Of a stretch of DNA of 46,907 nt, positions 1 to 17,374 are shown piece by piece. Where the stretch lies: the IMG/VR virus record IMGVR_UViG_2651869724_000014; one strand, written 5' to 3'. Position 1 is the stretch's first letter, and each line of letters starts with the position of its first letter. The notes below the pieces were generated by a model. It saw only the letters and a program-made list of their open reading frames with translations, ran no database searches and was not told the DNA's origin. The position numbers and the translations under genes are program-made. This DNA comes from a virus. Lineage: Duplodnaviria > Heunggongvirae > Uroviricota > Caudoviricetes.

Positions 1-507
1 CAGCAGGATCCCCGCGTTATTCGGGATATACGGAAGCAGTTTTTTGGCAATATGTAAGCCCTGGCCGACACAGCCGTACTGCCCTTTGCTCAGGTCTGCC
101 TTCGGATGATTCAGCGTACTCATATCCTGCACATCATGCAGGCAGTGGTCGGCCGGAATAATATCGTTATATCTGCAGGCAGCCCCACCCGGCGTCACTG
201 TACTGCGGCGCGCCAGCTGTTTAATGCGCGGATCCGGAGCATCGTATGAATCCGGCAGCGGAAGCCCTTCACCGTAAGCCATGGCATTGGACTGCCCGGC
301 CAGTACGATGACGTAGTACCAATCCGGCTCAGTTGCACCACTGACCACCACATCACCTTCTGCTGTAATCGCCTGCATCAGGGTATAAGGGGTTATGGCC
401 ACCGGACTACCAAACGGCTGCCAGCCCTCTTTCAGTTTGTGTGTCAGCTTTTCCGCAAGGTCTGACGGCGACGCCGCCCTGACAACATCATAATGTTTAA
501 ATGTCAT
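1..507 (-). CDS. Prophage NanS-p-like sialate O-acetylesterase, 5' part only (runs off window start)
   Basis: Minus-strand ATG at 505-507; translation begins MTFKHYDVVRAASPSDLAEKL and contains LAGQSNA, the GQSN block of SGNH/SASA esterases. Position downstream of Q matches where nanS-p sits in lambdoid phages. Confidence 0.5.
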   Translation of the reverse strand, partial: MTFKHYDVVRAASPSDLAEKLTHKLKEGWQPFGSPVAITPYTLMQAITAEGDVVVSGATEPDWYYVIVLAGQSNAMAYGEGLPLPDSYDAPDPRIKQLARRSTVTPGGAACRYNDIIPADHCLHDVQDMSTLNHPKADLSKGQYGCVGQGLHIAKKLLPYIPNNAGILL

Positions 508-550
508 TATTCCTCCCGGCCGGGATAGTGTATTAAATCAGATATGGAGT

Positions 551-595
551 GGGCTGTAGTCCGGAAGCCTGAATGACACACGGGGACTACAGCCC
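551..595. other. Perfect 12-bp inverted repeat (gggctgtagtcc / ggactacagccc) with 21-nt loop
   Basis: Seen directly in sequence; function unknown. Confidence 0.5.
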
Positions 596-721
596 AAGAA
601 ATGAAGAAGGCCACGCAGTTGCGCAGCCTGATAAACCCTGGTTAAAATCCACACGATAACAACACAACAATATCAGTATCTCATGCTATTGCCCGAACCC
701 ATTCGGGCATTTTTTACCCAT

Positions 722-753
722 AAAAAATGCCCCTCCGGAGAGGGGCATTTTTG
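722..753. terminator. Bidirectional intrinsic terminator-like hairpin
   Basis: atgcccctc-cgga-gaggggcat stem-loop flanked by an A-run upstream and a T-run downstream. Confidence 0.45.
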
Positions 754-1077
754 CATGCACATTCTTTTTCTTGCATGGTGCCGGGTGCCTCCCGGTGAAT
801 TCAGTATCAGCACCTGAATCCGCGATTATCACATATACCTACTTGCTGATTGCCCCTCCGCACAGGGGGATTCACCATGCAGTAGTATTTTTAATAAACA
901 GCAAATAAAAAAATCAAGCATTATGCAGGCTGTTTCTTTTTATCACCGGCTACAGCAATACCACAATGCCGCAGACCAGCACCCCATCCGCCAGCACCGA
1001 CATGATTCTGCTGGTGAAATCCACCATCACCACCAGAAACAGCAGGAGTGCAGCCACAGCCAGGCGCAGTTTTACCG

Positions 1078-1571
1078 TCACAGGTGATTCTCCAGACGAA
1101 GACCCAGAACACCGGCAATCTCTTCCAGCACCTTGCGCTCTTCCGGCTCAATTTCGCCGTCTGCCTCCGCAATGGCCACCGCCACATCCAGCACATCTTC
1201 CGCTTCACGCGTATCGTGTTTCACATCCTCGATCTCACGTAACGCCGCACGACGACCAGTTTTAAAGTTCGTATCCAGCTGACCGATAATGGTTGCGCTA
1301 ATCGCATTAATTTCTGACGTAAACGCGGACAGCGCAGGCTGATTACGCAGTACCTGTTCGATCTTCGCTTTCTAGGAAGCCTCACATTCACCATCTGCAC
1401 AGGCCACCAGGTAGGCAGCATTAATAACCGCCTGTGCCAGATCGCGTTTCTCAAACTTTCCTTTTTCCGGTTAACGTGACACACCAATAACTCTTGTCGA
1501 AAAAGCCAGCAAGCTGAAAGACCGGTATTCACAACCACCAGCGCGTTTACTGTACTGGCGTGATTTCAGTC
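1078..1571 (-). pseudogene. Decayed TerB-domain gene (in-frame stops / frameshifts)
   Basis: Minus-strand translation ends ...AEDVLDVAVAIAEADGEIEPEERKVLEEIAGVLGLRLENHL* with a second ADGE block upstream, a TerB-like signature. The frame is broken by TAG at 1372-1374 and a TAA further upstream; the ATG at 1571 gives only 8 codons. Confidence 0.3.
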
Positions 1572-1572
1572 A
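1548..1572 (-). terminator. Candidate tR'-like terminator downstream of Q
   Basis: Minus-strand RNA CCCGUCGCCAGGCGGG followed by UUUUUUU, about 100 nt after the Q stop. Confidence 0.35.
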
Positions 1573-1677
1573 TAAAAAAACCCGCCTGGCGACGGGTGTA
1601 AAAAATCTTCTAACGTCAGGCATAAAACGCCCATCGTTAGGGCAAATTTACCACAGATTCGGGAAAAATCAACAAAG

Positions 1678-2499
1678 CTATCTGGTCACCTTTTTCAGTT
1701 GTTGTTCTGCCCATGCTTCTTCAATATCAAACTGCACCACCAGCGTATCGTAAAAACGTTTAACTGTTTTTTTCCATGTATCAAGAGATATGGCATCGGT
1801 TACATTACATATGGCATTAAATGCCTCCGTTGAAGGTAATCTTTCATAGCCACGACCACCACAACGCTGGCAGTCTCTGATAACAGGCATACCACGTTTT
1901 ACCGACTCTTCACGATGAATGGCAACACCGCGCCCACGACAATCTTTACAGGCAGTGGATACCTCTCCCTTCCCTCCACACTCCGGACAGGCAACTTTTA
2001 CCACCTCCCTGACTTTTTTCCATTCCTCCCAGTAAGACGGATACACGCCTTTTGTGCACTTTGCCCACACTGGCGGCTTACCATCCGGATACTGGATCTT
2101 GTTTGTAAAAACCTCGCTTTCAATAAATTTTTTTCCGTGACAACAGGGGCACTGTTTTTTGCTCGCCGCGCTACGGGCATAATCTTCAAACGCATACGAA
2201 GCCATAATACGCATCACTGCCGGTTTTATTTCTGCCGGGAGTTTTCTTAACGCCGCCACGCGATCACACCGACTGAGTGCATATTCTGTCAGCAATTCTG
2301 TTGCCCGCTCTCTGTCATTCATACTAATGCCCATTTTCCCAAGGAACGCAGAAAACCCCATCTCAGCCCAATTCTGTGTCATGCCCTGCGCGGCCATCAC
2401 ATCAGTGATACTCAGCGTATCTTTCGACGTTGAGGCCGATGCATCAGTCAGGCCGAGGGATTTTGGGGAGTAGTATTTCGGTAAATCTTCCAGTTTCAT
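1678..2499 (-). CDS. Putative late antiterminator Q (QuuQ/YdfT-like, CxxC zinc-finger rich)
   Basis: 273-aa ORF with several CxxC pairs (CPCCHG, CPECGG, CKDCRG, CQRCGG), directly downstream of rusA and ydfU-like genes as in Qin/DLP12. Confidence 0.5.
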   Translation of the reverse strand: MKLEDLPKYYSPKSLGLTDASASTSKDTLSITDVMAAQGMTQNWAEMGFSAFLGKMGISMNDRERATELLTEYALSRCDRVAALRKLPAEIKPAVMRIMASYAFEDYARSAASKKQCPCCHGKKFIESEVFTNKIQYPDGKPPVWAKCTKGVYPSYWEEWKKVREVVKVACPECGGKGEVSTACKDCRGRGVAIHREESVKRGMPVIRDCQRCGGRGYERLPSTEAFNAICNVTDAISLDTWKKTVKRFYDTLVVQFDIEEAWAEQQLKKVTR

Positions 2500-5044: not shown

Positions 5045-5200
5045 TTACTCCTCAGGTTCGTAAGCTGTGAAGACAGCGACCTCCGTCTGGCCGGTTCGGA
5101 TTCGTACCTCGCAGAGGTCTTTCCTCGTTACCAGTGCCGTCACAATGACGGTTAAACAGATGACGATCAGGGCGATTAACATCGCCTTTTGCTGCTTCAT
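5045..5200 (-). CDS. hokD: Hok/Gef family type I toxin HokD (RelF)
   Basis: 51-aa translation MKQQKAMLIALIVICLTVIVTALVTRKDLCEVRIRTGQTEVAVFTAYEPEE matches HokD as recalled; ATG at 5198-5200. Confidence 0.8.
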   Translation of the reverse strand: MKQQKAMLIALIVICLTVIVTALVTRKDLCEVRIRTGQTEVAVFTAYEPEE

Positions 5201-5994
5201 AGCCTGCTTCTCCTTGCCTTTCGGCACGTAAGAGGCTAACCTAGATTTGCCGTTCATAGATTGAGCCTCAGATTAATGTTAAGCGTCTTGCAGGACGCGT
5301 AATGTTAACTGGGGCTTTTCTCTATCTGCCTTTGGTGTTCATGCCTGAGACAGATAGCCTCAAGCACCCGCAGCCATTCTACTTAACTCCCGTTACCTCG
5401 CCAATATGAAATCAGTCAGAAAGGCGATCCATAAGAACAACAGCAAGGCAATAAATTGCCATTAAGGCAGCAATAGCCAGCGCACATTTGAGAACCAGCA
5501 CCACAACCTCCTGTATTGGACGTACATCAGTCCTGATAAATATGAGGCTGTCTCGTCAGTGATTCAATACAACTATTGGGTATAGTTTCTGTGATTTTGT
5601 TCTGTAGAAATGGAACACAATAACCAGTCACCACCAGCACTTCTTTAAATACGCCAAGTCCGACGCAAGCTAACCTTCTAGCCCACTTTGAGCGAGAAGC
5701 AGACATTTACTTAACTGGATAGCAAGAGACTTCATATATCATGGTTGATCCCGGAGTTTTCAATAATGGAAAGACATTGCCCGTATGATCGGGCCGTAAC
5801 CACATTAGAAGCAGGTGCCCTTTGTGAATTTTGATTGTGTCAACCTATCTGTTTTGAATTTTTTATAAAAAATATTCGCAAATTTGTGAATTATGAGAGA
5901 CAAACGAGCATGGACAACCAATGTTACTTTCATACACAATGAAGCAACATGATAAAAGTACACTGACTTTAGCAAGTAAATTTAGGAGATTGCG

Positions 5995-11726: not shown

Positions 11727-11784
11727 TTTCTGGTGACGTTTGGCGGTATCAGTTTTACTCCGTGACTGCTCTGCCGCCCTTTTT
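11727..11784 (+). ncRNA. dicF: DicF small RNA (ftsZ-targeting sRNA of Qin-type prophages)
   Basis: tttctggtgacgtttggcggtatcagttttactccgtgactgctctgccgcccttttt matches DicF as recalled, with terminal hairpin and T-run, between ydfC and dicB. Confidence 0.7.
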
Positions 11785-16217: not shown

Positions 16218-16307
16218 TGGCGGAGAGAGGGGGATTTGAACCCCCGGTGGAGTTGCCCCCACTCCGGTTTTCGAGACCGGTCCGTTCAGCCGCTCCGGCA
16301 TCTCTCC
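16218..16307 (-). tRNA. serU: tRNA-Ser (anticodon CGA)
   Basis: Minus-strand sequence GGAGAGATGCCGGAGCGG...CTCGAAAACC...GGTTCAAATCCCCCTCTCTCCGCCA: long variable arm, CGA anticodon loop, CCA end. Confidence 0.85.
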
Positions 16308-17298: not shown

Positions 17299-17374
17299 TC
17301 CTCTGTAGTTCAGTCGGTAGAACGGCGGACTGTTAATCCGTATGTCACTGGTTCGAGTCCAGTCAGAGGAGCCA
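17299..17374 (+). tRNA. asnT: tRNA-Asn (anticodon GTT)
   Basis: TCCTCTGTAGTTCAGTCGGTAGAACGGCGGACTGTTAATCCG...GGTTCGAGTCCAGTCAGAGGAGCCA, 76 nt. Confidence 0.85.

Follow-up and report, generated by a model that had tools for sequence, protein, structure and literature searches.

What does a lambda-like prophage carry at the position where Shiga toxin (Stx) phages keep their toxin genes, when no toxin is found there? This question is raised by the virus record IMGVR_UViG_2651869724_000014 (Caudoviricetes), a stretch of 46,907 nt that is called the window here and provides all coordinates, and especially by the 1170 nt (1677-508) between its gene for the late antiterminator Q and an esterase gene of the nanS-p type. 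A first-pass annotation, made from the letters alone, had described this interval as the slot for accessory ("moron") genes in which stx resides in Stx phages, filled here with a TerB-like pseudogene and several hairpins. All of the elements it listed are present at their places on the minus strand, which bears the genes of our finding, with one small RNA (sRNA) gene, AgvB, antisense to them. We consider it very probable (about 0.88) that the interval is the leader and moron slot in the late operon of a lambda-like prophage integrated at tRNA-Ser(CGA). The protein cargo of this slot, the gene pair tciA-tciB, is inactivated, and its RNA cargo, a convergent pair of sRNA genes named STnc100 and AgvB, is intact. 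The architecture is already known, having been published by Tree et al. 2014 (PMC4104026), and the region is ordinary; the sole element without an earlier description, and a minor lead at that, is a covarying stem-loop in the leader of nanS-p.

In 5' to 3' direction of the minus strand, a DUF968 gene (3932-2883), rusA (2870-2496) and Q precede the interval, and the nanS-p-type start codon follows it. Inside, a PR'-like promoter with a pause element comes first and is followed by the terminator tR', the remnant of tciA (tciA') and tciB. The features are collected in Table 1.

Table 1. Features of the Q-to-nanS-p interval and of its surroundings in the window.
Feature	Position (nt)	Strand	Basis and remarks
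nanS-p, 5' end	1-517	-	DUF1737, E=1.9e-16; first 169 codons, runs off the window; Shine-Dalgarno sequence GGGAGGA 517-511, ATG 507
Leader stem-loop	550-596	-	inverted-repeat search; perfect 13-bp stem, 21-nt loop, in the nanS-p 5' leader, without T run
Second terminator-like hairpin	608-629	-	terminator scan; on the late strand
Probable sigma-70 promoter of AgvB	619-648	+	TTGCGC, 18-nt spacer, TAAAAT; read from the sequence, not in the consensus scan
AgvB, anti-GcvB sRNA gene	654-715	+	Rfam RF02702, 96.5 bits (gathering score 56), model 1-62
STnc100-family sRNA gene (EcOnc27/PasD-related)	716-906	-	Rfam RF02076, 146.2 bits (gathering score 47), full model 1-206
tciB, small membrane-protein gene (DUF3927)	950-1081	-	PF13064, E=6.8e-12; phrog_1470 ('TciB-like'), E=1.6e-21
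tciA', TerB-family pseudogene	1078-1458	-	alignment to intact 143-aa TciA; PF05099; codons 18-143, without start codon
Deletion junction	~1456-1466	-	A/G-rich microhomology (GGAAA...AAAG); left- and right-flank alignments to L075, L025, L061, L080 and L082
Leader remnant	1459-1573	-	shares 94-100% identity with the sequence after tR' in loci that continue into orf65 and a methylase gene
tR' intrinsic terminator	1574-1597	-	terminator scan; ACCCGTCGCCAGGCGGGT then seven T; stem 1597-1580, 7 bp, GC-rich
PR'-like late promoter with qut-like pause element	1633-1672	-	homology to lambda PR' and position
Q, late antiterminator gene	1678-2499	-	PF03589, E=4.7e-50; 273 aa, lambda-type
sok antitoxin RNA	5195-5369	-	110 bits
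DicF	11728-11779	+	76.7 bits
tRNA-Ser(CGA)	16218-16307	-	at the integrase end of the prophage
tRNA-Asn	17299-17374	+	beyond tRNA-Ser(CGA)

Both sRNA genes are full-length matches to their Rfam families with scores well above the gathering scores. AgvB is identical to the RF02702 consensus at 62 of 62 positions and likewise, over all 62, to the copy in prophage Sp10 of strain Sakai (AgvB1). It contains, within CGAUAACAACACAACAAUAUC at 654-674, the motif CACAACA that mimics the R1 targets of the sRNA GcvB (PMC4104026). The gene lies antisense to the late operon, convergent with STnc100 and between the moron coding sequence and nanS-p, the same location as in Sakai Sp10, and its putative promoter ends 6 nt before the Rfam 5' end. 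STnc100 is found in the same place, after the moron coding sequence and upstream of the esterase gene, in the loci L073 (there after stx2B), L075 and L005. AgvB ends with a terminator stem at 690-709, and STnc100 has a terminator of its own with a stem at 743-730 and a following T run. Terminators were predicted on both strands (723-752, together with 690-709 and 705-732) and the 3' ends of the two genes abut at 715/716; what had been taken for an anonymous bidirectional terminator at 690-752 is therefore a pair of back-to-back sRNA terminators. The first-pass annotation had seen the pseudogene in the slot and missed these two genes as well as tciB.

One might also take the hairpins between tciB and nanS-p as mere insulating terminators of the late operon, since canonical intrinsic terminators occur on both strands and a Q-modified polymerase must read through them. 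The quality of the Rfam matches makes this highly improbable, and so does the behaviour of the related RNAs in other strains. The identical AgvB of Sakai is an abundant primary transcript of about 60 nt that is bound by the small-RNA chaperone Hfq, relieves the repression of DppA by GcvB and aids growth in bovine rectal mucus, and EcOnc27/STnc100 has been detected as an RNA of about 235-247 nt (PMC4104026). EcOnc27, which is paired with AsxR downstream of stx2B, is the equivalent of STnc100 (PMC12711010, PMC12370729), and the latter is related to the PasD small RNAs (bioRxiv 10.64898/2026.05.13.724894). The AsxR model itself reaches only 43 bits in the window against a gathering score of 63. 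This match and those to Phe_leader, STnc370 and suhB all remain below their gathering scores, overlap the two real sRNAs or PR', and were treated as noise. Through its two sRNA genes, the slot thus retains cargo that is functional and characterised.

The proposal that this slot is the stx position is borne out by the layouts of two Stx phages. In BP-4795, stx1AB lies between Q and a block homologous to window positions 882-508. In L073, whose Q is 96% identical to that of the window, the order is Q, PR'/tR', three tRNAs, stx2A, stx2B, STnc100 and nanS-p. Thus, the same site between the tRNA genes and the sRNA pair can hold either tciAB or stxAB as its cargo. The window has no stxA or stxB between Q and nanS-p, and a tblastn search of its whole length with the A and B subunits of Stx1 and Stx2 gave chance matches only (E >= 0.9), in agreement with the earlier statement that the slot carries no toxin. 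An intact TerB-like gene in the slot of related prophages, for which a check had been suggested, does exist: a tciA of 143 aa, annotated as TciA or TerB-like, occupies it in Sakai Sp10, phage Evi, PPyecE_EH1910, JLK-2012 and several IMG/VR loci.

The leader part of the interval is recognised by comparison with phage lambda. A gene of the Q antiterminator family stands immediately upstream of the interval, as in lambdoid late antitermination modules. Its product is 32% identical to lambda Q (E=3e-39), which also belongs to PF03589. Compared with lambda Q, it has about 66 inserted aa (residues ~120-215), which add further CxxCxGxG zinc-finger repeats of the DnaJ central-domain type. Directly after Q, TGGTAAATTTGCCCTAACGATGGGC aligns with GGGTAAATTTGACTCAACGATGGGT of lambda PR', the -10 element TAAATT and AACGATGGG being common to both. 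The elements GGTAAATTTG and AACGATGGG are 4 bp apart in both phages, and the C at the second of these four positions is shared as well. All of these shared elements are invariant in four phages, namely the window, phage Evi, the stx2 phage L073 and lambda. The predicted promoter has an extended -10 element TGGTAAATT (1653-1645), a possible -35 element TTGATT (1672-1667) and AACGAT at 1638-1633, with a probable start near 1638; in the alignment with lambda PR', TAAATT is followed after a 7-nt spacer by AACGATGGG, the putative pause element.

In phage lambda, AACGAT is a sigma-70-dependent pause signal where Q loads. A weaker terminator-like match at 1644-1628 is therefore assigned to PR'/qut, and the hairpin at 1597-1574 is taken as the real tR'. 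This intrinsic terminator lies about 80 nt downstream of the Q stop codon and shortly 3' of PR', where a tR'-like structure had been noticed before. The RNA from 1640 to 1565 folds as two hairpins (z = -3.8), and the PR'-tR' segment including the terminator is conserved in the 80 IMG/VR loci of the same Q type (95-100% identity) that form our Q-matched set.

By analogy with phage lambda and the Stx phages, RNA polymerase would start at PR' and pause at AACGAT, where Q can load. Without Q, transcription would stop at tR' and a short RNA of about 65 nt would be released. With Q, the polymerase would pass tR', the terminator of STnc100 and the hairpin at 629-608 and go on to transcribe nanS-p and the lysis genes. 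AgvB would be made from its own promoter in lysogens and would sponge the core sRNA GcvB by means of the CACAACA mimic, as shown for the identical Sakai copy, and STnc100 would act as its Hfq-bound partner, the targets of which are poorly defined.

For the protein cargo, the comparison with intact relatives reveals a decay in several steps. The TerB family (PF05099) is still recognised in the remnant after the amber codon (E=1.3e-7; 1.8e-16 in intact relatives), and an intact TciA relative belongs to phrog_632 (E=1.7e-69). An uninterrupted frame of 143 codons with a start codon is not present in the window, which aligns to intact tciA only from codon 18 (AAG TTT GAG, 1458 onward) and has the amber codon TAG (1374-1372) in place of GAG at codon 46. 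The Prokaryotic Genome Annotation Pipeline (PGAP) marks copies of tciA with 100% and 99.6% identity as pseudogenes with an 'internal stop'. The first-pass annotation had spoken of a TerB frame broken by in-frame stops. This holds for the amber codon; the TAA at ~1473-1471, lying in the same frame, belongs to the leader of a foreign open reading frame (orf65) and not to tciA-derived sequence. The wording also understates the damage, as the start codon and the first 17 codons were lost in a deletion of about 1.9 kb.

This deletion became apparent from relatives. In the Q-matched loci, the 104 nt after tR' run into orf65 (phrog_331; 65 aa, weakly TrmB-like winged-helix) and then into a gene for an N6/N4 DNA methylase. 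Locus L075 presents the fuller layout, with Q, PR'/tR', orf65, the methylase gene, three tRNA genes, tciA, tciB, STnc100, AgvB and nanS-p. Therefore, the window carries a deletion of about 1.9 kb relative to L075, which includes tciA codons 1-17. The deleted stretch (5548-7244 in L075; also seen in L061 and L080) holds orf65, the methylase gene and the genes for tRNA-Met(CAT), tRNA-Arg(TCG) and tRNA-Arg(TCT), a set that is typical of Stx phages (ileZ-argN-argO). A search of the window for tRNA genes in the slot, where Stx phages have them, found none. The segment 1459-1520, upstream of the KFEK motif, was also considered as a diverged and frameshifted N-terminus of tciA, a candidate that was rejected because 40 loci of the same Q type continue at this point into orf65 and the methylase gene.

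The order of the two events can be read from the distribution of the alleles. Of the 191 IMG/VR contigs with tciA, 89 bear the amber codon and 102 the sense codon; a single amber allele accounts for nearly half of all tciA copies matching the scan pattern. The deletion junction was detected by the pattern scan in 48 of 85 amber copies versus none of 101 sense copies, and in the Q-matched loci, a set overlapping with the former, in 38 amber and no sense copies. The full 5' end of tciA is kept in four amber copies, and L075 has a full 5' end yet the same amber codon. Since every copy with the junction has the amber codon and four amber copies keep the full 5' end, the amber codon arose first, and the small reading frame, the methylase gene, the tRNA genes and codons 1-17 were deleted later.

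At this point two other explanations of the broken gene have to be weighed. That tciA is intact and its stops are sequencing or assembly errors has a probability of practically zero, and the population data refute it. Eight complete genomes of different strains, isolated from dogs, cattle and humans, carry the 1170 nt of the interval at 100% identity, 154 records agree with it at 99% or more, and 397 genomes contain at least 80% of it; the amber codon recurs in the IMG/VR contigs counted above, PGAP calls a pseudogene, and no frame supplies a start and an N-terminus, for these codons are deleted. The error that had been named as an alternative to a pseudogene is thereby settled in favour of the latter.

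It is also improbable that the amber and deleted tciA'-tciB allele still functions and is under selection, for example by expression of a 48-aa TerB fragment (1224-1078) or of the short TciB. The frequency of the amber codon in IMG/VR and its occurrence in three different 5' contexts would speak for it, as would the finding that 79 of 85 amber copies have no further stop after the amber codon. The copies are, however, nearly identical, and the absence of stops may reflect their youth and recombinational spread. The 48-aa remnant even has a PHROG family of its own, phrog_3920, but PHROG families are built from annotated reading frames and not from proven proteins, and its GTG at 1224 is preceded by GAGGA at a distance of only 1 nt, a poor spacing for a ribosome-binding site. 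Likewise, tciB keeps its start and both hydrophobic segments, whereas its translational coupling to tciA is broken 98 codons upstream. We therefore keep to the reading of an inactivated gene pair.

Two observations on tciA sequences may be added. The remnant reading frame 1224-1078 on the minus strand (beginning with MKHDTREAEDV) matches phrog_3920 over its full length, which shows that phage records frequently list the decayed allele as a gene. In 48 of 229 tciA copies (e.g. L088 and L174), one extra A is found in the GGT AAA AAA run of codons 7-8, by which the ATG is out of frame and only an in-frame TTG is left; this class could represent a slippage-prone tract, a second class of pseudogenes or the use of an alternative start.

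The second protein gene, tciB, is translationally coupled to tciA, its GTG start overlapping the tciA stop codon in GTGA (1081-1078). It is likewise shortened in the window: a change from TGG to TAG at 952-950 leaves 43 aa, the last 12 codons being lost to this second amber codon. Full-length products have 53-55 aa; in the survey of loci, a length of 55 aa was the most frequent. A check for membership of the two proteins in a known defence system gave little. With the defence-system models of PADLOC only a sub-threshold match was obtained for TciA/TciB (E=0.0035), and with NCBIfam only a weak DjlA-like similarity. The label 'tellurite/colicin resistance, inhibition of cell division' for TciA/TciB is a homology annotation and does not derive from experiment.

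Downstream of the sRNA pair follows the leader of nanS-p. The earlier identification of the gene as a nanS-p-like esterase is probably correct: in the genome of RM14723, which is 100% identical over the interval and the 507-nt 5' end of the gene, it encodes a SASA family carbohydrate esterase of 616 aa. The window contains the N-terminal DUF1737 domain, and the catalytic domain lies beyond its edge. About 40 nt before the start codon, two arms of 13 nt (550-562 and 584-596) are 100% complementary; the inverted repeat had been noted before as one of 12 bp. The stem is part of the minimum-free-energy fold (z = -3.05), and across 10 variants 90% of cells are paired. Compensatory changes were found at 4 pairs, compared with a mean of 0.7 after shuffling and 0-1 in slid controls, and the G.U pairs fit late-strand RNA only. 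This suggests a conserved RNA stem-loop in the nanS-p leader, and we infer that it most likely stabilises the late transcript or marks a processing site. The hairpin at 629-608 recurs before nanS-p in every upstream type that was examined except one (U4, U9 and U36), its relatives usually having a cleaner T run (TTTTTCG).

Operators, too, are commonly laid out as repeats close upstream of a gene start, and the 13-bp repeat, which is perfect and palindrome-like, might act as DNA, either as a protein operator or as a recombination site. This is decidedly improbable in view of the variants, which keep pairing through G.U wobbles that work in late-strand RNA only, differ in the sequence of the arms while the pairing is kept (L080, and L179 by eye), and have spacers of 21 to 33 nt, a variability atypical for a dimer operator. 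The RNA stem-loop is thus retained as the preferred reading. A wider proposal, unlikely in our estimate, is that the stem-loop and the hairpin at 629-608 form a cis-regulatory leader of nanS-p and the late transcript and that, in addition, the predicted PR'-tR' RNA acts in trans like StxS. Such a leader could, for example, provide a site for RNase III or a stabiliser, or a gate that silences nanS-p unless a Q-modified polymerase arrives. The literature searched contains no description of nanS-p leader hairpins and no mention of the ~65-nt PR'-tR' RNA. Between this stem-loop and the start codon, the nanS-p Shine-Dalgarno sequence overlaps a small CCCGG/CCGGG palindrome (508-549, minus strand), for which a 4-bp hairpin conserved in most variants is predicted; it could partly mask the ribosome-binding site.

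Several points weigh against the overall interpretation. The generic consensus promoter scan of the interval returned nothing usable: the promoters of STnc100 and AgvB were read by eye, and PR' stays below the threshold of the scan, so that its assignment rests on homology and position, while its -35 element is not positionally conserved with lambda. The covariation in the leader stem derives from 10 variants, one of which (L179) is misaligned, and owing to this small sample and the misalignment it is suggestive and not conclusive. RefSeq lists the 43-aa product of tciB as a normal protein (WP_001344632.1), and the loss of function of tciB is an assumption. Finally, the expression of the whole layout in this strain is deduced from the sequence.

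The interval is part of a Qin/Rac-like lambdoid prophage, which has sok and DicF in its early region and ends beside tRNA-Ser(CGA), the probable attachment site. By similarity to an annotated relative, the early region also contains hokD, dicB, ydfB/C and a gene with an FRG domain. In a related genome, a second integrase is located beyond tRNA-Asn, which suggests another island there. When positions 1-24000 of the window were compared with complete E. coli genomes, no match to the whole prophage was obtained, the best place covering 57%. Several strains have the block from Q to nanS-p at 100% identity, whereas the best match to the early region (97.6%) comes from other strains, whose Q is different. 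The prophage thus seems to be a mosaic recombinant, joined near 2541.

The findings leave the current understanding of these phages unchanged. Their use lies in a correct annotation, since apparently dead cargo and terminators really encode AgvB, a phage-borne anti-sRNA that rewires the GcvB regulon of the host, and its partner STnc100. In addition, the locus is a clean and datable case of turnover in the moron slot, the same flanks holding stxAB, intact tciAB or decayed tciAB in different phages.

Among known systems, the leader is comparable to the module of Q, PR', qut, 6S RNA and tR' in phage lambda, with which it shares the Q family PF03589, the -10 element TAAATT, the AACGATGGG pause element and an intrinsic terminator downstream. 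It differs by the low identity of Q and its zinc-finger insertion, by a -35/Q-binding region that is not conserved and by the length of the terminated RNA, which would be about 65 nt here and is 194 nt in lambda. StxS, a regulatory RNA of Stx phages (Sy et al. 2020, PMC7547250), is likewise a short constitutive RNA that starts at PR' and ends at tR' in the lysogen; its 74 nt result from the processing of a 258-nt transcript, and the phages that make it have another Q type. The predicted RNA of the window is compared with lambda 6S RNA and StxS by analogy.

The two overlapping protein genes are homologous to the TciA/TciB moron genes of P1-like and lambdoid phages (phrog_632 and phrog_1470), in contrast to which tciA is 5'-truncated with an amber codon and tciB is shortened here. 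The stx locus of Stx phages (BP-4795 with stx1, L073 with stx2, and the 933W/Sp5 type) agrees with the window upstream in Q, PR' and tR' (and has the tRNAs there) and downstream in STnc100/EcOnc27, an anti-sRNA and nanS-p. It differs in the cargo, which is stxAB instead of tciA'B, and in the anti-sRNA, which is AsxR rather than AgvB. The best counterpart is the AgvB1 locus in Sp10 of O157:H7 Sakai, an example of the convergent sRNA pair described in the moron site of lambdoid prophages of enterohaemorrhagic E. coli (Tree et al. 2014, PMC4104026). Both have Q, PR', a moron coding sequence, an STnc100-like sRNA converging with an anti-sRNA, and nanS-p, and positions 1459 to 1 of the window are 94.7% identical to it. 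Sp10, however, has a different Q, has kept the ileZ/argO tRNAs and contains an intact tciA (143 aa) and tciB (55 aa), whereas the window combines a lambda-type Q of 273 aa with the 1.9 kb deletion and two amber codons.

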